Shown: one piece after another, positions 6,985 through 40,133 of the stretch
Numbering within the stretch: the stretch's first letter is position 1
Layout of the letters: each line of letters opens with the position of its first letter
From: a virus
Reading direction: 5' to 3' (one strand)
Length of the DNA: 58,860 bases
IMG/VR virus record: IMGVR_UViG_3300043137_000366
Notes under the pieces: generated by a model
The model's database searches: none
The model's input: only the letters and a program-made list of their open reading frames with translations
Told to the model about the DNA's origin: nothing
Made by a program: the position numbers and the translations under genes

Positions 6985-7070
6985 GACCCCGGATTATGTC
7001 TGTTGTAACAAGTTATTGAGCGCGAAATAATCGTAAGTCGCTGTTTTTGTTGGTTTTGCGCAATTTTGGG

Positions 7071-7129: not shown

Positions 7130-7744
7130 ATGAACGACGAGCTGATCCCCGACAAAGGAGGCGACCGCAAGCCACGCCCCGGCAACCTCCGCCTCCTCAA
7201 CGATGGCGGGTTTCTCCGCGCCTTGGACGCCAATGGGCGCAAGTATCGCCTTCAGGCCGAGCCTGGCACCCCGGTTTCCGGTGTTGCTGCCACCGGCACC
7301 TTGACGGTCGACACCAACCCGACCGCCGGTGACACGATGACGATCGGCGCGACAACCTACACCTTCCGCGCCACTGCCGCTGTGGCCGGGGAGATCACGA
7401 TCGGGGCCAACCTCGCCGCCACGAAGCCGCTGATCGTCTCCGCCATCAATGGCGATTCGCTCAATGCGGCCAATGCCAGCGTGTCGGCTGCCACGTTCTC
7501 CTCGAACAACTGCACCCTGACCGCTCGCGTCGTCGGAGCTGCTGCGAACTCGGTCGCCACGACCGAGACCTACACCGCCGGCACGAACGTGTTCGCCGCG
7601 GCAACGTTGTCCGGTGGCGTCGATGGCACGGTGGCAAGCCGTGGCGACCGCCTGTTTGACACGTCGTTCACCTACCTCGCCACCGCGAACCTCGAAGTGA
7701 CGAGCACGAGCGGGTGGTACAAGCAGGCGCTGACGGCGTTGTGA
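7130..7744 (+). CDS. Hypothetical protein (A/T/G-rich, beta-rich; possibly virion-associated)
   Basis: 204-aa ORF containing TGTLTVDTNPTAGDTMTIGATTYTF, a pattern seen in phage structural or decoration proteins. Function not established. Confidence 0.55.
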   Translation: MNDELIPDKGGDRKPRPGNLRLLNDGGFLRALDANGRKYRLQAEPGTPVSGVAATGTLTVDTNPTAGDTMTIGATTYTFRATAAVAGEITIGANLAATKPLIVSAINGDSLNAANASVSAATFSSNNCTLTARVVGAAANSVATTETYTAGTNVFAAATLSGGVDGTVASRGDRLFDTSFTYLATANLEVTSTSGWYKQALTAL

Positions 7745-7754
7745 TCCCCTCTCC

Positions 7755-8105
7755 GGGCCTGCAATGGTTTCGACTCCATTGGGCCGCTCCCGAATAGCAT
7801 GCCGAGGTTGACCGGTTGGCCTCGTAAAAAGCCGGTCACAACAACAAACGGCACCAACACTGCCCGCTCCCGCACCGAAATCGGCGAACTCGCCCTTCCT
7901 GCCTGAGCATCACGCCCCGCCGAACGCCCGATCCCGGCGGGGAAACAAACCGGGCACCAAACGGAACCCAGCGCCGCAAAGACTGGGTGGTGGAGGCGGT
8001 CTCCGGATCGCCCTACGGCATGGCCCACCGTAACGGGCCGATTAAGCATGTCGAAGTTCAGGAGCGGAGCAGTGAAGGACGGCGGTTCGATCCCGCCCAG
8101 GTCCA
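7755..8105 (+). ncRNA. ssrA: tmRNA (ssrA), one-piece, CCA not encoded
   Basis: 5' end GGGCCTGCAATGGTTTCGAC pairs 7/7 with 3' CAGGTCC, including the G3:U70 wobble. T-arm is GGCGG-TTCGATC-CCGCC. An H-type pseudoknot (CGAGG/CCTCG and GACCGG/CCGGTC) lies at 7803-7837. A short tag ORF ends at TGA 7904-7906. Confidence 0.8.
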
Positions 8106-8227
8106 CTCAATCAACGGGAGCGCAGAAACCATCCAGTCGGCGACTAAGACCCGCAGGACAGTGGCGGTAGGTGAGAAACCGACCCCTCCCACCTTTCCCA
8201 AGCCCCGAGGCACTCCCCCTCTCCACC

Positions 8228-8830
8228 ATGCCCAACATCCTCGCCGATCTCCCGATCCTCCTCCCCTGCTTGGTCCGACGGGAGTTCACCCAGAACTTCA
8301 ATCGAGGGCATGGCGAGCTCATCCCGGCGCATGTTCTCGGGATCCGCTGCCAGGAGGGGCACTCCCTCCAGTTCCAGGTCAGATTTGAGGGCTCAACCTA
8401 CGGTGGCGCGATGTTTTGCCTTCCGATCCAGGCGCTTTGCTGGAAGGAATGCGAGAGCCCGCCATCGGAGCTTGTGCAGCCGTGGGACACCTTTTCCGAG
8501 CACTTTGCGGTCCATGCCTTCGCCCTCCTCAAGAACTCGCGTGCATGGCTCCTGAATCACGGGGCTGAGGCCTTCCCGAAGCGGATGGAGTCGCGATACC
8601 TCTTCACCGTCGACTTCAGCGGCAACGCCCTCGCCGACTGTTTCGAGCAGCACAAGCAACTCCACGTTCTTCAGGTCGAGGCCGGGTGGTTTGCCGCGGT
8701 GCCGAACAACCGCATGCTGTCCGACGACAGCGCGTTCTCGAAGCTGCCCGACGAGCTTCCCCGGTTCGAGTCACTGGCGGCCGACTTCTGTGGCGAGGTT
8801 ACGTTTCATCTGCCGGTGACTGCCCGTTGA
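8228..8830 (+). CDS. Hypothetical protein
   Basis: ATG at 8228 (MPNILADLP...). No recognisable motif. Its TGA stop lies inside a dispersed-motif copy. Confidence 0.55.
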   Translation: MPNILADLPILLPCLVRREFTQNFNRGHGELIPAHVLGIRCQEGHSLQFQVRFEGSTYGGAMFCLPIQALCWKECESPPSELVQPWDTFSEHFAVHAFALLKNSRAWLLNHGAEAFPKRMESRYLFTVDFSGNALADCFEQHKQLHVLQVEAGWFAAVPNNRMLSDDSAFSKLPDELPRFESLAADFCGEVTFHLPVTAR

Positions 8831-8946: not shown

Positions 8947-10719
8947 ATGGACCTGAATGGAGTCATCCAAGAGGCGATCAAGTGGTCCCCGGCCGCGTGG
9001 CTCGAAAACTACGGCAAGATCGAGCGCAAGGGTGGCGAGTTGGTGCGGCCGAAGGTCAACGAATACCAGCGCAAGATTTCAGCCGTTGTCGAGTGGTGCC
9101 ACCAGCATGGACGTCCGTGCCGGATCGTGGCACTCAAGCCCCGCCAGAAGGGATCATCGACTTTTTCCGTTGCCACTGCCTATCGCCGCCTGCTTGCCAA
9201 GCGTGGCCGTGGCCTGATTGCCGGTGGCGCTCACTTCCAGGGAGCAAACCTGTTCCGCATCCTGCGCACGTACGCCGAGAACGACGAGCTTGACCCGAAG
9301 AAGTGCAAGGTCATGGACATGGATGCCCGGTTCACCAACGGGTCATCGATGGAGCGGATCACGCTCGCCAACTCGAATGCTGGACGATCAGGCACGTATC
9401 AGGTGCTTATCGTCACAGAAGTTGCGTATTTACAGGAGGAGGGCGTCGCCAATGCCACCAACGTCCTCAACGGCCTGCTGAAGTGCGTTCCCTACGAGGC
9501 AGATACCATCATCATCCAGGAGAGCACGGCCAAGGGTGCCTCCGGTGACTTCTACGAGACGTTCGAGGGCGGAGTCACCTTCGAGGAGTTCAAGGCAGGC
9601 CGGAATGGCTACATCAAGATTTTCAGCCCGTGGTATGAGTTCGAGGACTCGCGCATGCCAGCGGCCAGCGAAGACATCCATTCGGAGGCCGATCTGACCG
9701 AGCAGGAGCGCGAGCTTGCGGCCAAGTGGTCGCTCGACCTCGACCAAGTCGCATGGATGCGCTGGGCCATCCGGGAGGAGTGCAAAGGCGACTTTGATCG
9801 CTTCGTGCAGGATTACCCGTTCGACCCGGAGACGTGTTTCCTCAAATCCGGCCGTGGCCGCTTCAATGCCGATGGGTTGAAACACCAGAAGGAGATCGCC
9901 AAGATCCGCCCGCGCACGTTCGGAGTCGTCGAAATGAACTACCGGAGCGACGCCGTGTCATTCCGCCCGTGTGGTGAGGAAGAGGCAAAAGTTGTCATGT
10001 GGGAGAAGCCGCGGGTGGGCTGCCGCTATCTTGTGTCCGTCGACCCGATGACCGGCGCCAGTCAGACCGGCGGCATCGATCCGGACAGTCATTCCGTGTT
10101 CGTCCACCGTGCCGGCTACATCGATGCCGGGAATGGGAAGTGGGTCGAGCCCGCAGTGGTGATGCGCAACATGCTTTTCCACGACGGGCTCCGGTTCGGA
10201 TGCTGGTGGGACATCGATGTGCTGGAGGAGGAGATTTACCGGATGGCGCGCTACTACGGCGGGGCGCTGATCGTTCCGGAAATGAACATGGACCGTGGGC
10301 TTGTCGAGCTCCTGAAGCTCCGCCCGGACGCCAACGTCTACGAGCGCGAGATGTTCAACCGTCGCGAAGGCATCACCACAAACGCGCTCGGGTGGATGAC
10401 CGACACGAAGACGCGCCCGATGATCATCGAGAACCTGGCGCGGTCGGTGCGTGAGACTGGGCGCGGGGTTGCTGGCGTGGGATTCGAGATCCGATGTCCC
10501 TGGGCGATCAAGCAGCTCGAAAATTTTGTCGTGAAGACCAACGGGCGGGCAGAGGCGGCACAAGGGCACCATGACGACGACGTGTTGTCACTGGCGATCG
10601 GGCACCAGTTGATCGAGCAGGCGACCGTGTTCTTTGAAGAGACCCGGGACGAGTGGCTGCCGCCGGATTTGAGGCCGAAGACTGGAGCGAGGGCGATGGG
10701 GCGGGCGCAATATGGATAA
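8947..10719 (+). CDS. terL: Terminase large subunit
   Basis: 590 aa. Walker A-like KPRQKGSST, Walker B-like LIVTEVAY, and nuclease-type acidic motifs VSVDPMTG and HHDDDVLSLAIG. Confidence 0.9.
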   Translation: MDLNGVIQEAIKWSPAAWLENYGKIERKGGELVRPKVNEYQRKISAVVEWCHQHGRPCRIVALKPRQKGSSTFSVATAYRRLLAKRGRGLIAGGAHFQGANLFRILRTYAENDELDPKKCKVMDMDARFTNGSSMERITLANSNAGRSGTYQVLIVTEVAYLQEEGVANATNVLNGLLKCVPYEADTIIIQESTAKGASGDFYETFEGGVTFEEFKAGRNGYIKIFSPWYEFEDSRMPAASEDIHSEADLTEQERELAAKWSLDLDQVAWMRWAIREECKGDFDRFVQDYPFDPETCFLKSGRGRFNADGLKHQKEIAKIRPRTFGVVEMNYRSDAVSFRPCGEEEAKVVMWEKPRVGCRYLVSVDPMTGASQTGGIDPDSHSVFVHRAGYIDAGNGKWVEPAVVMRNMLFHDGLRFGCWWDIDVLEEEIYRMARYYGGALIVPEMNMDRGLVELLKLRPDANVYEREMFNRREGITTNALGWMTDTKTRPMIIENLARSVRETGRGVAGVGFEIRCPWAIKQLENFVVKTNGRAEAAQGHHDDDVLSLAIGHQLIEQATVFFEETRDEWLPPDLRPKTGARAMGRAQYG

Positions 10720-10720: not shown

Positions 10721-10737
10721 CGTTGACGTAACGCGAG
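10721..10737 (+). promoter_or_regulatory. Dispersed motif copy CGTTGACGTAACGCGAG
   Basis: Starts 2 nt after the terL stop and lies 24 nt upstream of ATG 10761. Confidence 0.8.
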
Positions 10738-11285: not shown

Positions 11286-11510
11286 ATGAACCCCCTCCAA
11301 GAATGGACCTGCGGCAACACCCGCCCGCGCTGGTGGATGGGATACTCCCACTATTCCGCCGAGCGCGACCGATACCTCTACGTTGCGTTCCCGCTGAATC
11401 ACCTCGTCGCTGTGGCGTGGTGGGCGCACGACCTCTGGTGCCGGAAGCTACGGCATTCATCGTGGATTGATGGAGAGGTGGAGGAGAGAGCCGAAAGGAG
11501 GAGGCTGTGA
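11286..11510 (+). CDS. Hypothetical Trp-rich protein
   Basis: 74-aa ORF with an ATG start. Confidence 0.5.
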   Translation: MNPLQEWTCGNTRPRWWMGYSHYSAERDRYLYVAFPLNHLVAVAWWAHDLWCRKLRHSSWIDGEVEERAERRRL

Positions 11511-11953
11511 AAATCCTCTTCCTCGACGTCGATGGCGTCCTCAACCGCTGCGGGAAGTCCAATCAAGGGCTTGAAACAGACAAGTGCGACCTGCTGGCGG
11601 ATCTCTGCCGTCGCGTCGGGTGCAAGGTCGTGGTGTCCTCGACGTGGAGGAGATACCCTCACTTGATGGCGGATCGATTACTGCCAATGTTCCGCTCTCG
11701 CGGGATTGAGTGCGTGGGGCAGACTCCGATGCTGGAAAAGCCAAGCCCCGGCGGGCATGTCGTAGTCGCCGCCGCTCGCCACGAGGAAATCACCGCATGG
11801 CTCGCCGACCACGCCGAGGTTACGCAATACGCCATCGTGGATGATGACTCGGACGCCGACGACGGAACGGGCCGCTATGTGCGAACGGGGAGCTACGAGG
11901 GGATGACGGAGGCTCATGCCGCAAGAATCGAACAACTACTGAACCGACCATGA
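11507..11953 (+). CDS. HAD-superfamily phosphatase-like protein
   Basis: N-terminal ILFLDVDGVLN is the DxDx(T/V) HAD motif I. GTG start overlaps the upstream stop (GTGA). Confidence 0.65.
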   Translation: MKILFLDVDGVLNRCGKSNQGLETDKCDLLADLCRRVGCKVVVSSTWRRYPHLMADRLLPMFRSRGIECVGQTPMLEKPSPGGHVVVAAARHEEITAWLADHAEVTQYAIVDDDSDADDGTGRYVRTGSYEGMTEAHAARIEQLLNRP

Positions 11954-12096: not shown

Positions 12097-12467
12097 CCCC
12101 CACCGAACTCGAAGCCTACGACGCCATGATGCGCGACCGTGACCGGTGGCGTGAGAAGGCGGAGGGGTTGCACCCCGCTACCGAAAACGCCGTCGTCCAG
12201 ATGATCCGCCAGCGTGGCGAGGTTGGTCGTAAAAAATACGGCATTGGCATGGACCGGCGCGACCTGTCGCTGGCGCAGTGGATTCAGCACCTCCAGGAGG
12301 AGCTCGCCGACGGACTGCAGTACGCCGAGCGGATGAAGGGAGGCGCGAGCCTGCTAGATGAGGCCAGATCCATCATGGAGACGCTGGCGGACGAGCGGGG
12401 ATGGGAAGTGGCCGCTGATTGGGTGAAGAGGTTTGACGAGCAATTCCCCATCACCCCGTTGACGTAA
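12093..12467 (+). CDS. MazG-like nucleotide pyrophosphohydrolase, putative
   Basis: KKYGIGMDRRDLSLAQWIQHLQEELADGLQY resembles the all-alpha NTP-PPase pattern (DUF550 or MazG-like). Confidence 0.4.
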   Translation: MTPTELEAYDAMMRDRDRWREKAEGLHPATENAVVQMIRQRGEVGRKKYGIGMDRRDLSLAQWIQHLQEELADGLQYAERMKGGASLLDEARSIMETLADERGWEVAADWVKRFDEQFPITPLT

Positions 12468-12473
12468 CGCGAC
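12457..12473 (+). promoter_or_regulatory. Dispersed motif copy CGTTGACGTAACGCGAC
   Basis: The TAA of the motif is the stop codon of 12093..12467. Lies 21 nt upstream of ATG 12494. Confidence 0.8.
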
Positions 12474-13534: not shown

Positions 13535-16500
13535 ATGCCAAACGGACCCTTTCGTCAAATGGATCAAGGCGTTTTTCGCCGAGGTGTCAGTGAGCAGGCA
13601 GTCGGTGCAGATCCGAGTCCGGAAAGCGGCACGGTATCGCCATTGACGCGCCCGCCGGCGTGGAAGTCGCTTGCTGGAAACTCGCATTTCCAGCGCCTCA
13701 ACGAGGAGGGGATTCGCGCCGAACAGACACGGGTTCGCCAGAGTCAGCAGGACTCGCCGCGCGCCTCATCCACCCGCCAGCCAAAGTGGAAATCCGGCAT
13801 TGGCATCCTTCAGCGTGAGTTCCCCGACGGCAGCGTTGAAGATCACGACCCGGAGACCCTGCTTGACGATCCGGAAGTCGGCCAGATGGCCGCGCAGTCG
13901 CTTTATCTGCGTGACGTCAAGGCCGCCCAGGATGACGAGGCTGCGACCCGCCTTCGGCTTGACGACCCAAACGACCAGCGCAAGCTCGCCGACAAGAAGC
14001 GCGAGGAAATTCTTTCCATGGGCTCTGGCTTGGCAGAGACCGACCCGGAGCACCAGCGCCTCAAGAAGCAGCTCGTCGACCACGACGCTCGCATCCAAGA
14101 GGAACAAGACCTCTACCAGAAACGAGTTCGCCTCCAGCAGATCAAGCAAGGCGGCGTTTCCGGATGGCTTCAGCAGCGCCAGCAGGCGAAGCCGATCGAG
14201 CAGAAGGCACAGGAAGCCTCCCAGCAGGCCCAGGCCAACACCGCCCGCATCATCGCTGCCGAAGAGTCCGCCGCGCTTGAAGAGGAGCAGTTGAGCCAGC
14301 AAGCCCAGCAGGGCGTGCGTGGCAATGACCTGCCCGCGTTCCAACAACGCCAGCAGGAACTTGCCGCCGCGAAGACACAGATCGCCCAGCAGAAGGCACA
14401 GCCGGACGCGCAACTTCAGCAAGTCGCCACCGAGGCCGCGGGCAAGGCGGAGGTGATGGACGGTAAGCCGAAGCTCCCCAAGGCGGAATCGCTTGCCGCC
14501 GCGCTTCAGTCGGCCAAGCTCTACGGCTCCGCGACTGCCGCAATGGGCAATTCCAGCGACCAAGGCATCCGCCGGGGCGCGAACGGGAATTGGGATTTGC
14601 CGCTGATGATGCAGCAGCAGGACAATCCGATCATCAATGTCATCGGGAATCTCGCTGTCACCGGTGGCCAGAAGCTCGGGGCGCGACTTGAGTCCGGCGG
14701 CGTCCAGAAGGATGCCATCCAATCCGTTTTCCACAAGTTCCAGCAGGACAACAATCTCTCCGACGAGGAGGTCGCAACCGCGTGGTCGGACCTTGGCGCT
14801 CAATCCCGGAAGTGGGACACGGAGGAAAAGACCCGTGTGCTGTCTGACGGGCGCATCCTCCTCAATCCGCTTTCCAGCTACATCCTCGACACCAAGCAGG
14901 CGGAAGCGGTCATTGATGAGTCCTCCGCCACGCCGGAGCAGAAGGCCTACGCCAAGACTACTATCCAGGGCGTCCAGAACAACGTCGCCGCCGGGAAGCT
15001 GGAAGCGTACGAGGCTGCCGCGCAAATGCTGAACTCGAAGGAGGGCCAATCGACCCTTTCCGTTGGCATTGGTAGCGGTGGTGGCAGAAGCGGGCTCAAA
15101 TCTCCCTCCGAATGGGCGTCCGAAACCGGGCGCAAGGACACGATCACCGCCAAGTTCATCGCCGACTACGAGCGCGAGGTCATCGACAAGCAGTCGGGGC
15201 CGACCAAATGGGCGCGAGGGATCGCGACTGACTGGATGATGGGGAATCTCCAGAACGCCAACATGGTCCTCGGGCTTGGCGGCATGGCTGGCAGTGAAAC
15301 CATGGCGGAAATGGCCGCTCAGGGCGCAGAGGCCAGCAACCTCATTGGCCAAGGCAAGGCTGACACCGGGATCACCGGGCAGATTGTCCAGCAGGTGCCA
15401 CAGATGGCCGCGCAGATCGTCACCGGTCGCCTTCTTGGTGGTGCGGCAGCCATCACCGGTAAGGCCGCGCCAACGATCGCCAACATCGGCACTGTCTCGA
15501 TGGCTGGCGCTCAGTCGGCAGGCATGACCTACGCCCAGCAACGGGCAGCGGGCGACACCCACGAGGTTGCGTTCGACAAGGCCTACAAATCCGGCGTCTC
15601 CACGGCGGTCATCACTGGCATCATGCAGAAAATGGGGGCTGGCGGCGTGGAAAAGGTCGCCGCTGGCCGCAGCGTGGCCGACGTCACCGTGCGCGACTTG
15701 CTGAAGTCGGCCACGAAAAAGGAACTTCTCGAGAACACCCGGCGCTTTGCCGCCGACGTCATCAAGGCCTCCGGTGGTGAGTTCACCGAAGAATTTGCCG
15801 ATCAGCTCGCGCAGTCATTCCTGACCGCCGACCCCGACACCAATTTGGCAAACGCCTGGGAGGAAGCCGTGCAAGCCGGAACCGTTGGCGGCATCATGGG
15901 CGGAGGAACAAAGGTCTTGGAGGCCTCGTTCGACAACCACCCTCAGACCCCTGACGCTCAAGCCGCGCGCGTCACTGCCGAAACCCTCAAGACCGACCCG
16001 ACCGCCGCGCCGGTCACGCCGGAGGAAATCCGTGCCTCTCAGGATGTTGTGGGCGACTACCTCACTCCCGGCGAAACCCCTGACGAGGCAGCCGCGCGCG
16101 TGGCCGACGGGGTGAAGATCCACCGCGAGATCAGCCAGTTCGAGGAGCAAGCTGCCTCTGCCGTCAGCGATGCGCTGGCCGCGCTCGATGAGGCCACCGC
16201 TACCGGCGACAAGGTCGCGATCGAAGCGGCCAAACAGAATCTCGACAAGGCCTCTGCTGAGGCCACCAAGCCCCCGCGTGCGCGTGCCGTCGCCAAGATC
16301 GCCCGCGGTGAATCGCTCGATCTCCTCACCCACACAGAACTTCAGTCCCTCGGAATCCAGCGCACTGGCAAGCCATCCGACGCGAAGACCCTGGAAGCAC
16401 AAGGGCTCACTGCCCCACTTGTCGACATTGGCCCCGATGGACGCCCGATCTTGCTCGACGAGGCGATCAAACAAGCCGGCACCGTTTCTCCGACCGCTGC

Positions 16501-19500
16501 CGCTCGCGTCAAACAAACCGAGACGGAAGCCCGCAAGGCTGCTGCCGTTCGCGCCTCGAAGCCATGGACCGTCACCGGAGCCGCCGGAACGTCGGTCAAG
16601 GTGCAGGCGAAGACCCGGGAGGAAGCGGAGCGCATGGCCGTTGGTATGCCTCAGTGGAAGCTCGGGGAGACGGTGAAGACTGCGATTGAGGGTGCAAACT
16701 CCCAATCTACTCCTAATTCCTCCCAAGTTAGTAGTTTAGAGCCCGTTGTTGTGAACGAAACGCCGGTTGCTGAACAACAAGCACCGTTGCCCGTCACGGA
16801 TGCACCACAAGCCACCGACCCCGCCACCCTCAAGCGCAAGATCACCAAAGCCATCGCTGAGCGCAAGAAGGGCACGACCATCCCGATCGACATTCATGAT
16901 GGTCTTCACGCCACGGCCACCGAAAAAGGCGTTCGCATCAACCCATCACGATTGGCCGATATTGCCGCCAAGGCTGGATTCAGCGAAGACCAAGCCGGAG
17001 AATGGGTCGCCAGCGTCATTGACGAGGAAATCCGCCACGTCGCCCACCTCCGCGCGGCCCGTGCTGTCTTTGAGCAAGCGGGAAGCCCTGGCGGAAACTT
17101 TGACGCTTGGCTCATAAGTCACTACGGCCAGATGTGGCAGGGAGAGTTTTCTGCCGAGCAAAAGTCAGGCATCGAGGCCCTCTATGGAACAGGCTTCGAA
17201 AATCTGAAGCCTCATGAGAAGGCCATGGAAGGCCTCCGCATGCTTTCCCAGCAGATCGCCACCGGAAGTCCAACCGAGTCCGCCCGCCTGTGGAAGAAGC
17301 TCAGCCAGTCGATCCGCGACCACATCACTGCCGCCCTCGCCTCCCTGAAGGCGATGACCACCAGCCTCTCCCCCGTCCTGAAGGCGGAAGTGGACGCGCT
17401 GGAAGCTTTCCTTTCCCAGTATGCCACCCAGCCTCCAGCTACTCCAAATCGCAGCGAAAAGCCCGCTCCCGTCAAAGCGCCTGTTCGAGATGGCGAGGCA
17501 GGAAAGCCCAGTCGAAAAACTGACGGCGATGGCGGGGCTGTCGTGGGAGGACGCGCAGACCTTCCATCGATTGGTGATCGAGTCAGGACCGCCTCCGGCG
17601 TCGAGGGTGTCTATGTCGCGATCTCGGACAACAAGGAGCAGGCGCTGATCAAGACCGACGCCGGGAACAAGTTGGTCCCGGTTGGGGAGGTGGAGGTTTT
17701 GAGGGCTCCGGTCGATGAGGCATCGGACGCTCCGAAGGCGGAGGCTACTGCCGCAATCGAGCGGGAAGTTCCCAAGGACGACAATGCCCCGCTGGAGCTT
17801 GGGATCTACACGATCGACGGCGTGCGTTTTGAGTGGAAGCAGAACAGCGCCGGATACCGGTCCATCAACGCCGTTGATCCTGGATTCTTCCCTGTCTCGA
17901 CCACCGGTTACCGGTCAGTCATGAGCGGCTTCAACAAAGACGCCCAGCTCACTGTCAGCGAATACCGGAAGATCGCCAAAGAAAGTGAGAAAAGTGTCAA
18001 AGAACAGTTCATTCGCGAAAAGAAAGCGATCCTTTCAGCGCTCAAATCTGGGAGGTTAGAATGGATTTCAGGACTCCGGCAAAAGTTTGATTTCAACAAA
18101 TTCAAAGATGCGGAAATCACTCGCTGGCCGGTGAAGCTGCGCGATGAAATGCTGTCTCTAACCAAGCAGTTTCTTGACGCTATTGACAACGGAACGATCA
18201 AGCCTGATGGGGAAAACAAAGCGTTTGCCGCCGAATTGAAAAAGGCTTTTACCGCGCTTATGGGGACGATGGCGCCGGCGGAGTCTGCGGAGTCTGCGTA
18301 TGAGAAGGCCATAAGACAATCCGAAGAGGATAGAAAAGCCCGCGAAGACTGGATGAATAGTATCGCTCGCGAAAACACCATCGAAGCAATTTCCCGGCGC
18401 GATGATGTCCCCGCAGATCGAGTTGATGATTTCAAATTGGAACTGCCAAAAGGATACAAGCGCAGGGGCAAGGAGTATGTTTGGGTAGGGGAAGACGCTA
18501 TCGATCGCGAACAGCAGCAAGCCTCACTTACCACTCTTCCAACCCGCACGCTGTCATTTGATGAGGCGCTGGAAGAACTCGCGCCTGGCACCGACCTCGC
18601 CGACGATCCGCTTCCCTACTACGACTCGATCGAGCACGACATTTGGAATGGCGTAGATCCGGAGTCGCAGAAAAAGACCCCGATCTTCAAGAACGACCAG
18701 CTTCAGGGAATTTCAAATCCGCAATGGATGACGCCTGAAGAGGCCGAAGCCAAGCTCGCCGAGTGGAAGGCCCAGGCCAAGGCTGACGGTGCCAACAAGG
18801 ACAATCAGAACTCCGGGAAATACGTGGTTTCCCTCTTTGACTCGTCGGGAGTGTGGTCACAGCCGTGGGTGGATGCCGGTTACACCGTCATCCGCTTCGA
18901 CCTAGATGAAGACAGTGACTCGTGGAAAGAGGATGTTCAGAATCTCACCCGCGAGTTCATGGAGGACAATGGGCTCGACATGGTGGACATCGTGCTCGCG
19001 CAGCCGCCATGCACCGACTTCTCACTCGCCGGCAACCGGTGGTTCCACGACCCAGCCAAGGCTGAGCAAAAAAAAGCCAGCCTCGAGAAAAACACGCGCC
19101 TTGTCGATCACACGCTTGATCTCATCGGCTACCTCCGCCCGCTGATCTGGGGGCTCGAAAACCCGATTGGCACGATCAAAAAGCACACCAAGGTGGCCGA
19201 GCCCCGGCTCGTCTTCGACCCGTTCATGTACGGGGCCGACTACACCAAGCGCACGCAGATATTCGGCACGTTCAACGAGCAACTCCCAGAAGCGATGGTT
19301 TACCCCGCCCAGGGTTCGCGCATCCACAAGCTCTCCGGCAGCACGAAAGCCGGGAAAACCGCCCGCTCACTCACTCCGGAGCAGTTTGCCTACGCCTTCT
19401 ACATGGCAAACCGCGACTACGGCCAGTGGTCGGCCAAGCGCGCAATCGCACAGGAAGACGCTCCCGATCCGGTCAAACAGCGTGATCTGTTCTCTCCGGG

Positions 19501-22500
19501 TAATCCTGAATCCACAAGTGCCAAAGAAATTTCGGAAGCCGAAGTGAGGACTGCAAGGGTTCAGTCGGCCATTGCTGAAATCGAAGCTGACATCCAGTCC
19601 GGAACTATCCCCGACACCGTTCGCAGCTTCTCCGAGCTTGCTGACTACGTGGACGCAAATGAATACGTCAACGACGCCAACCGCGAAGACCGTTTGATCG
19701 GACCGCTTGGAAAGCGCCTCGGATGGAAAGCGCAGGATTTCACCGAGTTCACAAACATCATCATTCGGGATGTGGATTCTTGGCTGGCGTCGAGGTCGCC
19801 CGCCCAACCTGAAACAAGCGCCCCCGCTATTTCAGAAACCACCCCGAAGAAGAAACAAAAGCCCCGCACGATCGATACGCCCGCCCGTCGCGAGGCCTAC
19901 CGGATTCTTGATGCGACCGATTCGAGGCTGGCTTCAATCGCCAAGATTGTCGGTCAGAGAATCGAAGCGCCACCCGCTGGCATGCTGAGGATCATCAAGA
20001 ACCGCAGCAAGTCCGGGAGGATCACCGAAAACCAGCGTGCGCTTCTGGAAAAGTGGAAGGGCTTCGATGCTTACATGCCAAAGAGCGCGTTCGGCGACGA
20101 CTTCAACGGCAAAGTCGCGAAGGAGATCCACGGCATGCTCTTCAGCCAGGATCGCACCAACACAAAGGTCGACGACTGGGCAAAGCAGCTCGGAGACGTG
20201 ACCAACGACGAGGCGATGATCCTCGTCATGAACGAGCTGAACCAGATCGCTCGTGGGCAGGCCGACAAGGCTCTGAATCCCAATCGCGAATGGTCGGAGG
20301 CTGAGATCGCCGCCGAACAAGGCAAACTCGCCACCCCGACGCAGACCGCCGCATTCAAGGACGCCAACGAATACGATTTTGGCCGCAACGAGGTTGAAGT
20401 AGCTGACCTGAAGGTCGGCGACGTCGTCACAATCGACCGCGAGCCAATGACCGTAGAAGCGGTTGAGGACGACGGCACCGTCATCCTGCAAGATGGATCA
20501 CGGTTTGGACGTCAGGTCTTGGAGTCAGGAGAGACGCTTTACGTTGAGGCTTCCGAGGCAATTATTGAGCCGGAGCAAATTGAGGCTGAAGCCGAATGGC
20601 TAGTTGATGCGTCTGAGGAAATGGGGTATGAGTCCATTGATGAGCATGCCGCCACAGACCCAGCCGGATTCGAGCAAATTGCCAGTGAAGCGGAAGCTCT
20701 CGGACAAGGAGATTCATCGACTGGCGTTGCTGGCAGCAGCCAGAAGGATTCAGGCGAAGCGACGGGCGGCGAAGTAGCCGCCGAGCCCGTTTACTTCTAC
20801 GTCAAAGGCGACCGCGCCGAATACACAGGTGAAGTCCGGCAAGTGGCTGGAGTGCCGTTCCATATCGGCATTCTGAGGGAAGGTGCTCGAATCGGCCAAG
20901 AGGTCGGAACCTACACGCCTCCCGGCGGAACCAATCCGCTCCAAGATCAGTCGGCCAAGGACTACCGCGACCAGCAGGAGCAATTCAAGAGGCTGAAAAC
21001 CCCCGCCTCCAAAATGGACATCCGCAACGCGGACTCCAAGGAGTTGTTCGCCGACGATGGCGGGTTCAAGCTCGGGCAGGATACCACCGTTGACGGCGAC
21101 AAGGTCGCTGCCGACCGGAAGGCCAAGGAGGACGCGAAAGCCGCCCAGGATGCAGCGCAGGGGGATATGTTTGGGGCTCCCGCCCTCACCGAAGCCGAGC
21201 AAGCCCTGAAGGATGCTTTCGGCGACATGGTGGATGGGCTGAATGCAGCGGACCTTTCCGACAGCGCGCCCACCTACTCCCAAGGCATCCCGCCCGAGAA
21301 AATCGGCCAATTCATCGCCGCCGCGCAGAAGCTGATCGCCGAAGGGGTGAAGACCCCCAACGGGCTCGCCGCCGCCCTCGACAAGATTTCCCCCAAGCTC
21401 CGCGCCTACTCAGACGCCGTGTGGAGCGCGTTTCGGATGGTCGACCCATCGTTGCAGGCTTCGCCGGATTGGGCTGGAGTTTATTCAAAAATCAACGAAC
21501 CTACCTCAAATGACGGAAATCCCGGCACCCCTCTGGAATCAGATCGCGGAAACACAGTCGCTGGAAACCCCGGCGGCGAAAGTGGCGTTTCGACTGGATC
21601 AGCAGCAGATCGCGGAGATGGAGGACGAGTGGGCGAGGCTGGAAGCGGCAGCCGGGACGGACGAAGCAATCGTGTCCAGCCTGATAACGTGCTTGCCGAT
21701 GCTGGCGGAGCGCAGCGCGATTCAGGAGTTCGTGAATCAGCATCCGAATCTGGCCAGCGCCTTGCCGGAAATGAATCGACCCGAGGAAGCGGCCGACCTG
21801 ATGCAAATGGAGTGGAGGCTTTCCAGCGCGGAGAGAACGACACTCACGACGGCCTTGTCATCGCCAATTCACCTGAACCGGTGGCATCAAGCGGCGTTGA
21901 AGGCATCCGCGATGCAGCCGACATAAGGAAATCCGCTCCCGCTCTTACGATTGACCAGGCGGGCGATGTCGCATTCATAGAGAAGCGCCTTCTGGAGTCC
22001 GGAAAAACTGGTGTCTTGCTCACCAACGGAACCGGCACCGGAAAAACGTTCTCCGGACTTGGTGCCATCAAGCGGGCGCTTGATCGTGGCGAAAAGCACA
22101 TCATCATCGTCGCGCCATCCGACAAGATCGGAAGCGATTGGGCCGCCGCCGCAAAGAAGCATTTCGGCATCCAGGACATCGCTCAGCTCAACGACACCAA
22201 AGACCGCGGCGATGGGAATCGGGTCGTCGTCACTACCTACGCCAATTTCGGACAGAACAACGAACTGGTCTCACGCCCGTGGGGGATGGTCGTTACCGAC
22301 GAGGCCCACTACCTCTCCTCCTCCAAAGATGGATCGCCGACGCTGGCGCTCGCAACGCTCCGGGGACTGACTTGGCATCCAACCGAGGGTGTGAGGAGCC
22401 GTCTTGCAATGGAAATGGCGGATGAGTTCGCCGAGATTGCCGCCATCCGCGCAAGCATTGATTCCAACAGTCGCATCATCAATGGTTCTGATACCATGGA

Positions 22501-25500
22501 CCAAGTGCGGCAGGCACTTCAGGAGGAAAATAGGACGCTTGATCGTCGCTACGGAGTCCTTGATTTGAAGATCAATACCCGCCGGGAGGAGCTTTCCAAG
22601 ATCGCCGCCGGGATGAAGGAATCCGACCGCCCGAAGGCGCTGTTCCTTTCCGCAACGCCCTTCGCCTATCACTTCAGTCTCGACTACGCTGAGAGCTACC
22701 TTTTCGACCACCCGAAGGAGAATGAAAAGACCGTCGGCGGCTACAATCATGCGTCCTCGCGCTCGAAGTTCTTCATGGAGAATTTCGGCTACCGGATGCG
22801 CTACGGGAAGTTGACCCAGCCCGAGAATGCAACTGCCGCCGGCATGCTGGAGCGAATGTTCTCCGAGCGCCTGAAAAAAGAGGGCGCGATGCGTGGTAGG
22901 GCGCTCGACGTGCCATTCGATTACAGTCGCGAGTTCGTGCTGACCGAAAGCGCCATCGGAGCCAAGGTGGATGAGGTTTTCAACCTGATCAGCAACGAGG
23001 ACAAGTTCCGCGTGCTTCGCGACACAGATGCAATGGAGATCGGTGATTACCTCGCCCGCCGCTACCTGCTGGAAGGCATCAAGGCCCGTGAGGCAGTGAG
23101 TCGGATCAAGAAGCATCAGGCGCTTGGCCGCAAGGTCGTCATCTTCCACGATTACAAGAAGGGCGGAGCGATCAACCCGCTTCGATTGAAGTCATTCAGT
23201 CCAGAAGCGAAACTGGCCTACGACGAGTTGCGTGACATGGTCCCCGGCTTTGACAGCTTGGTAAAACTGCTCGATGGGCTCAGGTCTCCAATCGATGTCA
23301 TCGCTTCTGCATTTCCTGATGCCGGAATCTTCAACGGAGACGTGTCGGCCAAGAACCGCAGGAAAATTGTCGAGGACTTCAACACGTCCGGCGGAAAGAT
23401 GGACATCGTTCTTGTCCAGCGGGCCAGCGGCAAGGAAGGGATTTCCCTTCACGACATCGACGGTAAACACCAGCGCGTGTTCATGGATCTTGGTATCCCT
23501 GGTCGACCGACCGATGCCATCCAGAGCGAAGGCCGAATTTTCCGCCATGGGGTCAAGAGTAATGCCGTTCTCGAATATCTCACCACCGGAACCGACTTTG
23601 AGCGATGGACCTTTGCCCAGACGATCGCCAACCGCGCCAGCACCGCCGAAAACCTCGCGATGGGCGAAAAAGCCCGCGCCCTACTTCAGGCGTTCTCGAC
23701 TGGCTACAACGATGCACAGCCATCCACCCCTAGCGCCGAGCAGGGAAGCGGCGGAAAGCGTGCCGACCGCGCTCGTGACAATGGCAACCCCTTCGACAAC
23801 GCTGTCGCGCTCTACTACACCAACGAGAAAAAAACCAATCGGACCAAGGCGGCGGAGGGGATCGACTATTTCGCAACACCGGAGCCGCTTGGATTCAAGA
23901 TGGTCGAGTGGGCAAACGTGCGGCCTGGAGAAAAAATCCTAGAGCCTAGCGGTGGCCACGGCGCGATCGCCCGTTTCTTCCCTGACTCAACGATCCGCCA
24001 CGCTGTCGAGCCATCGTTCGAGCTTGCCGGACGCCTCGCGCTCAACTCGCCGGACACAAAAATCCACCAGACCACGTTCGAGAACTACGACATCGTCAAC
24101 AAGTTCGACGCGATCGTGATGAATCCGCCGTTCGGCACCGCAGGGAAAACGGCGATGGATCACCTCGAAAAGGCATTCAGGCACCTCAAGGACGGCGGGC
24201 GCATCGTTGCCTTAATCCCGAACGGGAGCTCAATGGGGAAACGCTTCGACAAGTGGTATGAGGAGACCGAGGGCGTGTTCATGGCCGGAGAGGTCATGCT
24301 GCCATCCGTGACGTTTGAGCGAGCCGGAACGTCGGTCTCCGCTCGCGTCGTCATCCTCGACAAAGTGAAGGCCGATGATGCTCGTCAGCCGGCATATCGC
24401 GACTTCACCGACGCCGGGAACATCAAGGATCTGTTCGCCAAACTTAAGGACTCCACAATCCCCGAGCGCCCGACTCCATCGGTTCAGAAATCTCCGTCCG
24501 AAATGATGGCAGAACTGATCAATGGCGGCCGCGGCGCGGTCTTGCCGGTCGCAACGGAAAACGCCGGGGATTTCTCTCCGATGGAGTTCACCCACACCCG
24601 GGACGGACATCAGGTGTTCGTTGCCAAGATCAATCGGAAACTTGATGACGTCGAATACTCCGCTGCGAAGGCGATGGCGAGACGCTACAACGGGAACTAC
24701 AGTTCATTCCGTGGTGCTGGCGCGATTCCCGGCTTCCATTTTAAGAGCGCGGATGACCGCGATGGTTTCATTGGGACGATGAGCGAGCGCGGCCAATCCC
24801 TCCAAGCCGCCGACCTCTCCGACAACGAAACCCTCCCCAACATCGCCGACCTCCGTGAAAAAGGCCGCGCGACGATGGCAGGCCCGGAAGTCGAGGCCGA
24901 AATCCGCGCCCAACAAGCCGCGTTCAAGCAGCAGGGCAAGGTCGCTGGTCGTCCGGACCTCGCGAACATTTCCGAGGACGAGGACGTTCGCGCTGAAATG
25001 GACGTCACCGATGAAATGCGGAAATGGGTCGCCGAGCGTCAGGAAAAGCAGCAGTGGGAGAACGAGGGCCGCCGACTCGTCGAAACCGACGCCGATGCGG
25101 TCGAGGAGAAGATTCTGGAGGCCGCCTACACCCGTGGCGGACAGAAGTTCACCGCCGCCGATGTGGTGGCTGGTCGCATCCTCGCCGAGAAGCGCACGAA
25201 GGAGGCCGGGAATGACAAGCAGAAGCATGCGGACGCCGCTGTGCTTCGCCATGGCTACCGCGAGGTTCGCTCCGAGCAGGCCCGCGTGCTTGCCGCTGGC
25301 ACCGACCCATTCAAGACCCCGGAAGAGCGCCATCGTGATTTCATCGCCGGTGCGCTCTACGAACTTCCGCAATCTCTCCTCAACGACATCGAGGGTCGCA
25401 GCCAGTCGCCCGCCCAGGCCCGTGCCGCCATCCGCAAAGCGGTCATTGAACGCCTGACCAAGATCGAGAAGGCGCTGAAGAAGATGGGCGTGACGCTGGA

Positions 25501-28126: not shown

Positions 28127-30316
28127 ATGAACGAACAACTCGAACGTGTGATCGACCAGCCCGAGATCGGGATTGACCAGATCGACCCCTACGGCCCACG
28201 CATGCCGTTTCCGACCTCCTACGTGCTCACCCGCGAGCAGGAGGATGAATTGGTCGACCATGCGATGAAGCGCCTGGAGCAACTGGAGGACGAAACCGGG
28301 CGGAAGCGCACCGGGAAAGGCGACTGGTGGATGATGGGAGATCAGGGCATCGAGAGCAACGACCCGCTCAACACCAAGCGGGCATCGCGCACGTTCTTTG
28401 GCAAGCGTCGCCTCTACGACCTCGTCTATGACAACGACGTCGATCACCGCGCCGTCATCCTCGGTGGCATCTTTGCGGAGTCGAATCTTGTCGTGCCGTT
28501 GGCCCGCCGGATCGCCCGCCAGATGACTGCCCGCGCCACCAACTACTTTTTCAGCACCGACCCATGGTTCGCCGTTTATCCAGTCGGCGAGAACGATCGC
28601 GTGCGTGCCGACAAGGCTGGCCGATACACCCGCTGGAAGATGGAGCAGGCGCACATGAAGCGTGCCCTGGAGCTCGGCATCGAGCGGGCGTTTGTCGTCG
28701 GCGAGTCGGTCATCAAGACCTCCTGGAAATCTGACCAACAGGTTTACGTAACGCGAGCGACCGTCCTGGTGGATGCGCAAGGCAAGGACATCATCGCTGC
28801 CGATGGCGACTACATCCTGCCGACCGATCTCTGGATCCTGCCAATGGTGACGGACCCGGTGACGGGCGAGCCGGTGCAAGACCAGATCGCCGTGCTGAAG
28901 CGTGACGGACAGACCCAGCAGCCGGCGGAAATGCTTTGGGCGCCGAAGCTCGTCACCCGCCGCATCACCCACTACAACGGACCCGAGGCCAAAGTGGTTC
29001 ACTTCCTCGACTTCCTTTGCCCTCTAGAGGCTGCGAGCATCCAAGAGGCCGACTGTGTGTGCCACCTCTACGACATGCCAGTCATGGATCTGGCGGACCA
29101 GTGGAAGAAGCAAGAGGAGGGCATGGCCGCTGAGGAGGGGATGGAAAGCACCCGCAAGGCGATCAACTTGATTCGTGAGCTTTCCAACGCTACCGGCGAG
29201 CCCAAGAACGCCCAGACCGCCTACGACCCAAGCACGACCGGCGCGGACTCCCGTCAGGACCGCACCGACCCGGTGGTTTCCATCGTGGAGTTCCACCTTC
29301 GCTATGATGCCGACGGTGATGGCATGCTCGAAGACGTGATGCTGGTGGTCGACCGGAACAGCCGCACCCCGATCTTCTACGACTACGAGGCCAACGTCAC
29401 CCCCGACGGCAAGCGCCCGTTCTCGGTGGTGCGTGTCAACGAGCGCCCAGGCCGCTGGTATGGCATCGGTGCCTTGGAAATGTTCGAGACGACCCAGCAA
29501 ATCGTCGACCTCACGGTGAACCGCTGGAACTTCAGCCAGTCGCGCGCGTCCCGGGTCGATTTCTGGAGCCCGCACAACACGCTGGAAGGCCGCTCGAACC
29601 CGCACCTCACGCTCAACGGCGGGATGACCTACACCCCGCTTGGCAACAAGAAGGCGGCGGACTGCTTGGAGTCGGTCTATCTGAGCAACAACAAGGACGT
29701 CGAGCTCAAGGAGATGATCGACTTCTTCATGCAGCTCGCCATGAACGAATCCGGCGTGATGAACGCCAATGACACTGGCGCGGCCGGACTCGACACAGCG
29801 AAGCTGGCGACCGGCATCCGCAACATCGAGAAGAACGGACAAGAGATGTTCTCGCTCTACCTCGGCCACTTGGAGCCAGGGATTGCGAACGCACTTCAGA
29901 AGATGGTCATGCTGCTTTTCGCCAACATGGACCAGATGGAGGTCTATCGCTACTTCGAGGAGGGCGAGCCCGGAGGCGAAGGAGCGGAGGGCATGCAGGC
30001 GATCGACCCGGGCGAAATCTCCGACATGGAGATCGACACTCAGATCCTTCTCTCCCGCTACCGCGGTGAGCAGGTGTTGGAGGGATCGATGCGAGCGGCT
30101 GAGTTGGTGGAAAAATTCTACAACCTCCCCTACCCCGTCCAAATGACGACCGCGCAACTTTACCGCGACATGCTGAAAGCCCTTCAGGTGCAGAACGCGG
30201 ACAAGATCATCGTGCCAATCGACCTCGGCGGCATGGGCGGAGGCCCCGGCCAGCAACCGGGTGCATTGTCTGCCGCCGTCGCTCCGAAACCACGTCAAGC
30301 CACTCCAAACCTGTGA
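28127..30316 (+). CDS. Portal protein, putative
   Basis: 729 aa. Called from its size and its position upstream of scaffold and capsid. No motif-level proof. Confidence 0.6.
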   Translation: MNEQLERVIDQPEIGIDQIDPYGPRMPFPTSYVLTREQEDELVDHAMKRLEQLEDETGRKRTGKGDWWMMGDQGIESNDPLNTKRASRTFFGKRRLYDLVYDNDVDHRAVILGGIFAESNLVVPLARRIARQMTARATNYFFSTDPWFAVYPVGENDRVRADKAGRYTRWKMEQAHMKRALELGIERAFVVGESVIKTSWKSDQQVYVTRATVLVDAQGKDIIAADGDYILPTDLWILPMVTDPVTGEPVQDQIAVLKRDGQTQQPAEMLWAPKLVTRRITHYNGPEAKVVHFLDFLCPLEAASIQEADCVCHLYDMPVMDLADQWKKQEEGMAAEEGMESTRKAINLIRELSNATGEPKNAQTAYDPSTTGADSRQDRTDPVVSIVEFHLRYDADGDGMLEDVMLVVDRNSRTPIFYDYEANVTPDGKRPFSVVRVNERPGRWYGIGALEMFETTQQIVDLTVNRWNFSQSRASRVDFWSPHNTLEGRSNPHLTLNGGMTYTPLGNKKAADCLESVYLSNNKDVELKEMIDFFMQLAMNESGVMNANDTGAAGLDTAKLATGIRNIEKNGQEMFSLYLGHLEPGIANALQKMVMLLFANMDQMEVYRYFEEGEPGGEGAEGMQAIDPGEISDMEIDTQILLSRYRGEQVLEGSMRAAELVEKFYNLPYPVQMTTAQLYRDMLKALQVQNADKIIVPIDLGGMGGGPGQQPGALSAAVAPKPRQATPNL
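28743..28757 (+). promoter_or_regulatory. Dispersed motif copy TTTACGTAACGCGAG (intragenic)
   Basis: Lies within the portal coding sequence (encodes VYVTRA). Confidence 0.5.
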
Positions 30317-32103: not shown

Positions 32104-32120
32104 CGTTGACGTAACACGAA
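32104..32120 (+). promoter_or_regulatory. Dispersed motif copy CGTTGACGTAACACGAA
   Basis: Lies 22 nt upstream of the capsid ATG at 32142. Confidence 0.8.
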
Positions 32121-32141: not shown

Positions 32142-33608
32142 ATGGCCGAAGACATCACACCCGTAATCACCGGGTCATCGCTCGCTGCGATGGCTCCCGG
32201 TGCCGTCCGTCAGCTCTGGGAAACCGGAGTCCACGTTGCCGAGCAGGAAGAGGACTTCTTCCAGCAGATGGAGACCACCTCCAAGACCGGCATCATCGTC
32301 GCCAAGTCCGATACCTCCAAGGGTAAGGGCCAGAAAATCACGTTCACCAACATGAGCGGGTTCTACGATGAACCCCACATCGGTGACGCCCGGTTCGATG
32401 GCCCCGAAGACTTCGAGGAAATCAACATCAGCTCCTACGACCTCGATGTCGACTGGCTCCGCCACGCCTACTCCAAGAATGACCGCGCCGAAGAGGTGAT
32501 GGGCATGCGCGGGGAAATCCTGAGCGGTGCCAACGTCGAGCTTGGGAAGTGGCTGGGCCGCCAGAAGTCCGAGCAGATGTTCGGTATCTTCAAGCTCCAG
32601 CTGAACTCCGCAAACGTGTTCTATGCTTCCGGCAAGACCCTCGACACCCTGACCAGCGCCGACACGCTGACCTGGGATGAGATCGTCACCGGCGGTCAGG
32701 CCATGAAGCCCCTCGGTGGACTTCCTGCCAACGTCTCGCGTGCCGGCGGCATGCCGATCTGGTCGCAGACCGTGATCCCGACTGAAGCGGCCCTCACGTC
32801 GCTGAAGCTCGATCCGGACTACAAGACCGTCCTCCAGAATGCCGGAGTCCGTGGCGAGCAGAACACTCTGTTCAACGGCGGCTACCCCGACATCGACGGC
32901 CACACGATCGTTCCCTACAACCCGATTGACCACGACGGCATCGGCTCGGTTGGCTCGTTCCTCAACCCCAAGGCCTTTCTTGGAGTCGCGGTCACGGCTG
33001 GCACGACCGCCATCGAGATCAAGGGTGGCGGCAACGCGACCGACGCGGCGAAGACCAAGAAGAAATACTTCAAGTTCTTCCCGAACTACGCCTACGAGTT
33101 CCTTGGCACCGGCGTCATCACCCCGTCCTCCGACACCCGCTACTTCCTGATCTACAACGTCAGTGGTGCGGATGCTGGCAAGGCTGGCATGTACTCCTAC
33201 ACCACCGGCAACGATGGCAACAAGATCACCATCGTCAACCGGCTTGGCTCGGCTGCCTCTGGCGCTCGCGTTACCACCCTTGGTGGCGTGACCTGGAACA
33301 CCGGCGTCTGGTCCGGCAAGCACACCGACGCTCACCCGATCGGTTCGCTCATCATTCCGTGCAACTCCCTCGGAGTGCCGATTGGTGACACCCTCATGCT
33401 CGGCCGCATGGCTGCATTCCGTGGATACGGCAAGTATCGCGGCATGCGCTCGCAGCAGGAGCTCGAAGGCGGATTCATCCAGCAGAACTACATCACCAGT
33501 GTGTTCGGCCAGAAGCTCCGTCAGGACCGTCTCGGACGCCACCCCGGCGTCATCCGCATCACGCATGCGATCAGCTACCCAGGCGTCAACCTCCCGGTTG
33601 TCTCCTAA
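32142..33608 (+). CDS. Major capsid protein, putative
   Basis: 488 aa. Follows the scaffold gene and is followed by a strong hairpin with a T-run. Confidence 0.65.
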   Translation: MAEDITPVITGSSLAAMAPGAVRQLWETGVHVAEQEEDFFQQMETTSKTGIIVAKSDTSKGKGQKITFTNMSGFYDEPHIGDARFDGPEDFEEINISSYDLDVDWLRHAYSKNDRAEEVMGMRGEILSGANVELGKWLGRQKSEQMFGIFKLQLNSANVFYASGKTLDTLTSADTLTWDEIVTGGQAMKPLGGLPANVSRAGGMPIWSQTVIPTEAALTSLKLDPDYKTVLQNAGVRGEQNTLFNGGYPDIDGHTIVPYNPIDHDGIGSVGSFLNPKAFLGVAVTAGTTAIEIKGGGNATDAAKTKKKYFKFFPNYAYEFLGTGVITPSSDTRYFLIYNVSGADAGKAGMYSYTTGNDGNKITIVNRLGSAASGARVTTLGGVTWNTGVWSGKHTDAHPIGSLIIPCNSLGVPIGDTLMLGRMAAFRGYGKYRGMRSQQELEGGFIQQNYITSVFGQKLRQDRLGRHPGVIRITHAISYPGVNLPVVS

Positions 33609-34721: not shown

Positions 34722-34727
34722 CCGATC

Positions 34728-36625: not shown

Positions 36626-36628
36626 GCC

Positions 36629-37015
36629 ATGGCCATCACCAACATCGTCAATCTTGAGGAAATTGAAACGTGCGTCGCGCGCGCGCTTCAGGGGCTTCGT
36701 GACGGCGTAGCTGCTGCCCGCAAGGCTGGAGTGAGCGCGATGATGCCCGACGAAGTGGAGTTCCGCATGACCGTCATCAAGGACTGGCAGAAACTCGAAA
36801 TCGTCACCAACGAAAGCGGCTCGAACAACGAGACCCAAGGCGGAAGCACGACCGAGACCACCACCGAGAAAGAGTCCCGCAAAGGCACCGAGAAGTCGGT
36901 CCGCGACGAGACGTCCGATACGAACGACACCGACAGCAAGACCGGCACCGACGAGACCTCGACGCTCGGAAGAAACACTCACAATGGGAAGAAAACCCAA
37001 AAGACCGACAGCTAA
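36629..37015 (+). CDS. Hypothetical protein with T/S/E/K-rich disordered C-terminal half
   Basis: 128-aa ORF with low-complexity composition. Confidence 0.5.
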   Translation: MAITNIVNLEEIETCVARALQGLRDGVAAARKAGVSAMMPDEVEFRMTVIKDWQKLEIVTNESGSNNETQGGSTTETTTEKESRKGTEKSVRDETSDTNDTDSKTGTDETSTLGRNTHNGKKTQKTDS

Positions 37016-40132: not shown

Positions 40133-40133
40133 A

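Follow-up and report, generated by a model that had tools for sequence, protein, structure and literature searches.

The window, i.e., the whole stretch of DNA analysed here, is 58,860 nucleotides long and carries an exact 124-nt terminal repeat (1-124 = 58737-58860). This makes the contig circular, and 58,736 of its bases are unique. In the window ARAGORN detects one RNA gene, a tmRNA on the plus strand (7755-8106) with the tag GTNTARSRTEIGELALPA*, and no tRNA genes. The Rfam model RF00023 matches positions 7755-8108 with 109.5 bits (E 6.6e-42, gathering score 47) over model positions 1-374, untruncated; the window has no above-threshold match to any other Rfam family. The gene is thus placed among one-piece tmRNAs by a covariance-model score above the gathering threshold over the full model, and ARAGORN concurs. 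A sequence-only reading of this DNA had proposed a complete one-piece tmRNA at 7755-8105 and had suggested a check with covariance models; both programs call the full-length gene, and the score is not below threshold. A two-piece (permuted) tmRNA was also considered and is ruled out by the colinearity of the match with the standard model from 1 to 374.

The mature body of the gene (7755-8105, plus strand) folds better than 100 of 100 shuffled sequences (z = -3.2). The 5' strand of its acceptor stem, GGGCCTG (7755-7761), forms 7 bp with CAGGTCC (8098-8104) and includes the alanine identity pair G3:U70 (G7757:T8102). The D-loop analogue GGTTTCGAC (7766-7774) is a part of the SmpB-binding tRNA-like domain and is nearly invariant in the alignment of homologues. 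An H-type pseudoknot, PK1, occupies positions 7803-7837: its first stem is CGAGG (7803-7807) with CCTCG (7820-7824), and its second stem is GACCGG (7810-7815) with CCGGTC (7832-7837); both the sequence and covariation speak for the pseudoknot. The tag reading frame called by ARAGORN (7850-7906, plus strand) consists of the GGC resume codon at the head of 18 codons and an in-frame TGA (7904-7906). PK2 (7915-7955) is formed by CCCCGCCG (7915-7922) with CGGCGGGG (7935-7942) and by GCCCG (7926-7930) with CGGGC (7951-7955). The first stem of PK3 (7966-7988) pairs ACCCAG (7966-7971) with CTGGGT (7983-7988), as judged from the sequence and from covariation assessed by eye; the remainder of PK3, and PK4, are by-eye readings. 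The T-arm (8081-8097) reads GGCGG (8081-8085), TTCGATC (8086-8092) and CCGCC (8093-8097), and the discriminator A is at 8105. Positions 8106-8108 are CTC in place of CCA. Thus CCA is not encoded and must be added post-transcriptionally.

These elements agree with the sequence-only reading, which had listed the 7-bp acceptor stem with G3:U70, the D-loop analogue, the short tag ORF, the T-arm and the discriminator A, all of which are found where it put them, and had located PK1 at exactly the same coordinates. One structural detail is peculiar to the window and its closest relative, contig L030. In both, helix 2a carries a C-A mismatch, and a hairpin CAAUGG/CCAUUG (7762-7767 / 7776-7781) competes with helix 2a and is preferred by MFE folding. 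In other family members helix 2a is canonical and the competing hairpin is absent. Two ORFs that overlap the tmRNA, 7672-8106 (minus strand) and 7987-8388 (plus strand), are not accepted as genes, since JGI does not call them and their GC3 shows no coding-type signal.

The tmRNA is surrounded by phage genes. Upstream lies an ORF of 204 aa (7130-7744, plus strand; phrog_28344, function unknown), whose stop is 10 nt before the tmRNA and whose homologue directly precedes the terminase in relatives. Downstream, after 122 nt, comes the plus-strand ORF 8228-8830 (phrog_3704; 200 aa as called by JGI, or 219 aa if GTG 8171 is the start), which precedes the terminase gene. The JGI gene calls leave exactly the tmRNA gap between these two ORFs. 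The gene for the large terminase subunit, TerL (8947-10719, plus strand; phrog_24361), starts approximately 840 nt after the tmRNA; by tblastn its product has 23-26% identity to annotated TerL genes. Further along are the genes for an SU10-type portal (28127-30316) and a major head protein (32142-33608), and the window also encodes a Gp80-type podophage fibre protein and an amidase. A minus-strand block at 41.9-54.8 kb contains helicase, primase, exonuclease, SSB and Sak4-like annealing genes, and an integrase gene (phrog_1) is located at 55482-56822 on the plus strand.

On the plus strand the tmRNA is not followed by a terminator-like site, nor is it immediately preceded by a promoter-like one; the closest match of sigma-70 type (7003-7031) lies ahead of ORF 7130-7744. 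Since the tmRNA also starts 10 nt after the stop of that ORF, it would be co-transcribed with the rightward packaging and structural genes.

Several other features of the genome were observed. Directly upstream of the portal gene is a plus-strand gene (13535-28123) for a giant protein of 4,862 residues with SF2 helicase (ResIII/DEAD/Helicase_C) and methyltransferase domains. It resembles phage giant polyvalent proteins, and its homologues are present in all related contigs. The ORF 11507-11953 (plus strand), 3.4 kb downstream of the tmRNA, has a HAD_SAK_2 domain (E 1e-26), the type of HAD phosphatase found in 'Swiss Army Knife' proteins of RNA repair; the phage thus has a second gene of RNA-maintenance type in the same arm as the tmRNA. 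A 16-nt motif, CGTTGACGTAACGCGA, has 17 sites in the window with at most three mismatches, against 0.64 expected (e.g., 10721-10736, 12457-12472 and 32104-32119 on the plus strand, 44498-44513 and 54099-54114 on the minus strand). The sites checked against gene calls have the orientation of the gene and end from less than 10 to about 40 nt before its start codon, in the position where a Shine-Dalgarno sequence would be. Possibly the motif serves as a promoter or 5'-leader element specific to the phage; immediately upstream of the tmRNA it has no site.

The status of the gene as phage-encoded follows from a circular contig with terminase, portal, capsid, replication and integrase genes, and from phage ORFs on both sides of the tmRNA. 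The window has an integrase, and tmRNA genes are classic attB sites. It was therefore considered that the tmRNA is an attP or other integration element, or that an assembly chimera has joined phage and host DNA. Fragments of ssrA in the attP of prophages and islands are indeed, like the window gene, tmRNA-derived sequences on temperate elements with an integrase, but they are partial 3' fragments adjoining the integrase. The window gene, in contrast, is complete, and no stretch of it of 13 nt or longer recurs elsewhere in the genome, near the integrase included. Flanking repeats that might mark a cassette were searched for around the tmRNA, and none were found. The G+C content of the gene (0.64) matches its surroundings (0.60-0.635; the whole window has 60%). 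The first 20,719 bases, the tmRNA included, are identical in a second metagenome record, JGI 3300036944. The neighbourhood of the tmRNA and TerL is also conserved in relatives, an isolate genome among them. We regard an integration element or a chimera as very improbable and in effect already refuted.

The earlier reading had come to the same view, arguing that the gene is no attP remnant because it lies 48 kb from the integrase. That argument overlooks the circularity of the genome: across the circle junction the integrase is about 9.7 kb from the tmRNA. The conclusion itself stands on other grounds: the gene is single-copy and does not adjoin the integrase, and its counterpart is internal in a related Luteolibacter element. 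The chimeric contig that the same reading had named as a danger is countered by the phage ORFs on both flanks and the identical DNA in the second contig. A look-up of the exact integrase protein gave no match on record, and no integrated copy or att site was found. The tmRNA is internal to a circular temperate phage genome, among its DNA-packaging genes.

Relatives of this phage were sought through its terminase, which has matches in 11 IMG/VR contigs (59-69% identity) and in a 63-kb scaffold of Luteolibacter pohnpeiensis KCTC 22041 (Verrucomicrobiota; 73% identity), the sole match in 185,579 species genomes. No cultured phage terminase is closer than approximately 25% identity. The tmRNA itself has no blastn match in 50,697 phage records, and megablast of 25 kb gives only a 100-nt match to Pseudomonas phages. 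The Luteolibacter scaffold also encodes homologues of four further window proteins, including the giant protein. Its element (L031, NZ_JAENIJ010000025.1, 33969-51735) has a tmRNA at L031:5926-6292, upstream of the terminase and with genes for tRNA-Met, Gln, Glu and Pro nearby. This tmRNA is flanked on both sides by homologues of window phage genes and is not located at a boundary or junction of the element; its tag is read as GKQNASFSRSRVVSDDLVLSN. The element suggests, from gene similarity, that Verrucomicrobiota is the host phylum of the window phage, and also that L. pohnpeiensis carries a second tmRNA besides its own. The phage group is temperate and apparently uncultured, with its sole isolate-genome relative in Verrucomicrobiota.

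The position of the tmRNA differs among these relatives. In the window and the Luteolibacter element it precedes the terminase gene; in contigs L001, L013, L021, L024 and L025 it follows that gene, with a tRNA-Arg gene adjoining in the last four. No tmRNA was found within 6 kb of the terminase in L002-L011. Its absence near TerL in several relatives means that the tmRNA is dispensable; it is an accessory gene with a variable position in this phage group. A tRNA-Met gene recurs near the terminase or the tmRNA (L001:2144-2217, L006:2765-2838, L030:4766-4842, L031:5385-5460), and the surroundings of the terminase seem to be a hot spot for the gain and loss of small RNA genes.

To compare the tmRNA with others we used an exact 20-nt PK1 motif, GAGGTTGAYCGGYTGGCCTC, and the comparison set is limited to tmRNAs that share it. 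The motif occurs in 17 IMG/VR contigs and in at least 120 metagenome contigs. Rfam finds the homologues in L001, L014, L018, L029 and L031 that were missed by ARAGORN. Fourteen aligned tmRNAs with the motif served for the analysis of covariation. Taken together, the acceptor stem, the T-arm and both PK1 stems have standard pairs in 98.8% of cells, and double-sided changes are seen in 14 of 23 pairs; none of 500 shuffles reaches the observed values. In a control in which the partners were slid by 1-3 columns, pairing was 38-56%. The acceptor stem is 100% paired in all 14 homologues with four of seven pairs covarying, and so is the T-arm, with four of five. PK1 has compensatory changes in 6 of its 11 pairs, with 96-99% of cells paired. 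The G3:U70 pair is invariant (14 of 14 homologues); the alignment also shows no variation in the resume-codon G or in the A at -4. RNAalifold gives 30 pairs for the tRNA-like domain with helix 2, of which 19 are compensatory, and the PK2 stems and the first stem of PK3 covary among homologues when judged by eye. As far as these alignments tell, the structure of the tmRNA is under selection.

The tag peptide is unusual. It has 18 residues, starts with Gly and ends in Pro-Ala (...ALPA), and so does not have the Ala-Ala-COOH (LAA) degron ending. Such an ending is a typical but not a defining property of tmRNAs; accepted ones such as that of Bxz1 (...ALV) are without it. The end of the window tag, ...GELALPA, resembles the common cellular ...ELALAA with the penultimate Ala changed to Pro. 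The L-A-L-P-A codons are CTC GCC CTT CCT GCC in the window and L030, and CTC GCT CTC CCA GCC in L001 and L029. There are thus three synonymous differences (GCC/GCT, CTT/CTC and CCT/CCA) and no replacement between tmRNAs that are only about 60% identical overall, a pattern indicative of selection on the peptide. These codons argue for peptide-level selection on the C-terminal LALPA, although the constraint on this part could also act at the RNA level. Between the window and L030, its closest relative, all four tag differences are non-synonymous. By this comparison the N-terminal part of the tag is freer, and only the C-terminal part is clearly constrained. A degenerate L-A-L-P-A-stop pattern gave 42 matches in IMG/VR, with tmRNAs only in three that were already known, and in the literature nothing relevant was found that mentions these tag strings.

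A passage of PMC12493166 that cites Flynn et al. 2001 describes the last two Ala of ssrA tags as conserved and crucial for ClpX docking. If docking needs Ala-Ala as that passage states, the Pro-Ala end is expected to weaken the ClpX route, and the window tag is most likely a poor ClpX degron.

The window is not alone in having such a tag. Among the matches listed, we compared 68 distinct complete tmRNAs with the same PK1 motif in a simple neighbour-joining tree; the metagenome part of this set carries no taxonomy. Among these matches the window clusters in an 11-member group that forms one clade and that also includes the Luteolibacter element, other viral contigs and a few short unclassified metagenome contigs. 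The tags of all 11 members start with Gly, have 18-30 residues and an open frame, and none of them ends in LAA; the endings are ALPA, ALVA, ALV, ELV, LSN and AAA. L030 and L029 are without the exact PK1 motif, but their tags are of the same kind. Identity to the window tmRNA is 57-64% for other members of the group and 79% for L030, against 46-54% for cellular-type tmRNAs with the same PK1 motif among the matches listed.

The cellular-type tags are of another kind. Among the 56 distinct ones listed, the length is 9-11 residues in 52, the first residue is Ala in 54 and the ending is LAA or MAA in 52. Most of the listed metagenome copies have canonical tags (ADSNELALAA, ANSNELALAA, ANNEPELALAA, ANQELALAA and similar), and listed copies are found on contigs of up to 610 kb beside cellular genes, among them those for histidine kinase, P-type ATPase, carbonic anhydrase and RibBA. 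The contrast between the window tag and host tags is therefore one with metagenomic cellular tmRNAs that carry no taxonomy.

Two further patterns were seen among the tags. An acidic motif (...AEADEILARF...ALV, ...AEADAILARF..., ...EEADAILAFHGY...) occurs in the long tags of tmRNAs on the viral contigs L026, L018 and L013 and on the unclassified metagenome contigs L103 and L119. It is not present in the window tag. It resembles the tag of Bxz1, ...DAEIEAFFAEEAAALV (L193:60-494), and this likeness may be due to convergence or to shared function. The tag GNNVIRGNFGSNTVALVA is common to L014, L016, L017, L027, L096, L110 and L167, whose tmRNAs are 346-395 nt long and whose contigs have 45-61% G+C. 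Its coding bases are identical in L014, L016, L017 and L027, in which other parts of the RNA differ considerably.

The clade may be phage-specific, judging from where it occurs: every member is on a viral contig, next to phage-type genes or on a short metagenome contig without classification. It includes phages linked to a Verrucomicrobial host and contigs without detected gene similarity to the window near the tmRNA. On other viral contigs, PHROG scans of ORFs near the tmRNAs were mostly uninformative, and the large ORFs next to those tmRNAs show no relationship to TerL of the window. A bolder reading is that a phage-specific lineage has diverged within phages, without repeated capture, with a systematic loss of the Ala-Ala ClpX degron from its tags, which end in ALPA, ALVA, ALV, ELV or LSN. 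We find this possible but tend to doubt it. If it were true, a phage-specific lineage of tmRNAs would rescue stalled ribosomes without host ssrA proteolysis, or would mark the products for a different fate. It could also counter host nucleases that cut mRNA or tRNA in abortive infection, a point on which the HAD gene downstream of the window tmRNA would bear.

The position and the relationships of the gene bear on another origin, namely the recent capture of a host ssrA that now travels as a passenger without a selected phage function, for example after imprecise excision of an ssrA-integrating ancestor. The phage is temperate and has an integrase, ssrA is a common integration target (PMC9004378, PMC3146451), several relatives have no tmRNA near TerL, and the tag end ...ELAL-A resembles the widespread cellular ...ELALAA. 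Yet the gene is complete and does not adjoin the integrase, no duplicate fragment accompanies it, and the tmRNA of the Luteolibacter element is internal. Moreover, its closest tmRNAs are those with non-canonical tags (57-79% identity), while cellular-type tmRNAs among the matches listed are at most 54% identical, and the compensatory and synonymous tag changes show that it has been maintained while diverging within the group. We consider a recent passenger quite unlikely.

The absence of an SmpB domain from the approximately 60 phage ORFs scanned raises another alternative. The phage must compete for the host protein, and its tmRNA might act as a decoy or inhibitor that shuts down or skews host trans-translation, by titrating SmpB, AlaRS or EF-Tu of the host or by competing with the tmRNA of the host. 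The tag is non-canonical, and in phage DS6A the copy comprises nothing but the tRNA-like domain, a kind of molecule that inhibits tmRNA (PMC4131195). In the window and its group, however, the mRNA-like domain is conserved, with the context of the resume codon, an open tag frame in 11 of 11 members, a stop codon and four pseudoknots, the fourth of them read by eye, and the synonymous changes preserve a tag end for which a pure decoy would have no need. A decoy is rather unlikely.

We thus favour a working phage tmRNA that adds ribosome-rescue capacity and whose products are not fed, or are fed inefficiently, to canonical ssrA proteolysis; this is probably what the gene does, though its expression and charging, its reliance on SmpB of the host and what becomes of tagged proteins are all inferred here. 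The transcript would be excised in the manner of a phage tRNA, by RNase P at the 5' end and then by 3' trimming and CCA addition. Host AlaRS would charge it with alanine via G3:U70. Host SmpB and EF-Tu would then bring it to ribosomes that have stalled on broken mRNAs, during infection or possibly in a lysogen. A phage without SmpB would have to use host SmpB, AlaRS and EF-Tu, as expected from established tmRNA biology (PMC8012679). Translation would resume at GGC 7850 and append A-GTNTARSRTEIGELALPA. If Ala-Ala matters for docking as the passage cited above has it, rescue would probably be partly uncoupled from ClpXP proteolysis or redirected away from it. The phage could benefit from extra recycling of ribosomes while late translation runs at high volume, or when mRNAs are cleaved by host nucleases. 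Ribosome rescue and redirected tagging, the two roles that the earlier reading had put forward, are both plausible, and the unusual tag would fit either.

The gene shares the plan of bacterial one-piece ssrA (RF00023): an acceptor stem with G3:U70, the D-loop analogue, the T-arm and the discriminator A, together with helix 2, PK1 before the tag ORF and pseudoknots after it. Its PK1 and the ...ELAL-A end of its tag resemble those of cellular tmRNAs encoding A(D/N)SNELALAA. Unlike bacterial ssrA, it is encoded by a phage, has an 18-residue tag with Gly first and Pro-Ala last, has no smpB in the same genome and does not encode CCA.

Known phage tmRNAs offer other parallels. They are present in 402 of 18,146 phage genomes (2.3%, PMC9004378), a figure that bears out the earlier statement that tmRNA genes are uncommon in phages. 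A listing of 2014 named eight mycobacteriophages, Bacillus phage G and DS6A (PMC4131195). The first to be described were those of the Bxz1 type (Bixzunavirus; PMC4131195), which, like the window gene, are complete one-piece tmRNAs inside a phage genome. The Bxz1 tag, re-derived here as ATDTDATVTDAEIEAFFAEEAAALV, is likewise long and does not end in LAA, and in both cases the host must supply SmpB. Bxz1, however, is a 156-kb lytic myovirus of Actinobacteria with its tmRNA within a cluster of about 30 tRNAs, whereas the window phage is temperate, has a 58.7-kb genome without tRNA genes, and has a tag without the acidic AEI..A.F motif. The tmRNAs of marine myophages (OM43 phage Melnitz and pelagimyophages; PMC9004378) are, as in the group studied here, carried by only some members. 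They are circularly permuted two-piece molecules, one of them coupled to a glutamine riboswitch, while that of the window is one-piece; the roles proposed for them are the maintenance of hijacked translation or the tagging of proteins (PMC9004378).

Phage tmRNAs are thus already known, and the window gene, which passes the structural tests for a one-piece tmRNA, is an addition to them. Our literature searches found no experimental test of phage tmRNA function. The relatives described here give a testable contrast between the cellular-type ...ELALAA and the phage ...ELALPA, the latter held by synonymous changes. Therefore, the question of whether phage tmRNAs uncouple rescue from proteolysis becomes directly testable. 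For the phages themselves, a poorly known group, the finding means one more accessory gene related to translation.
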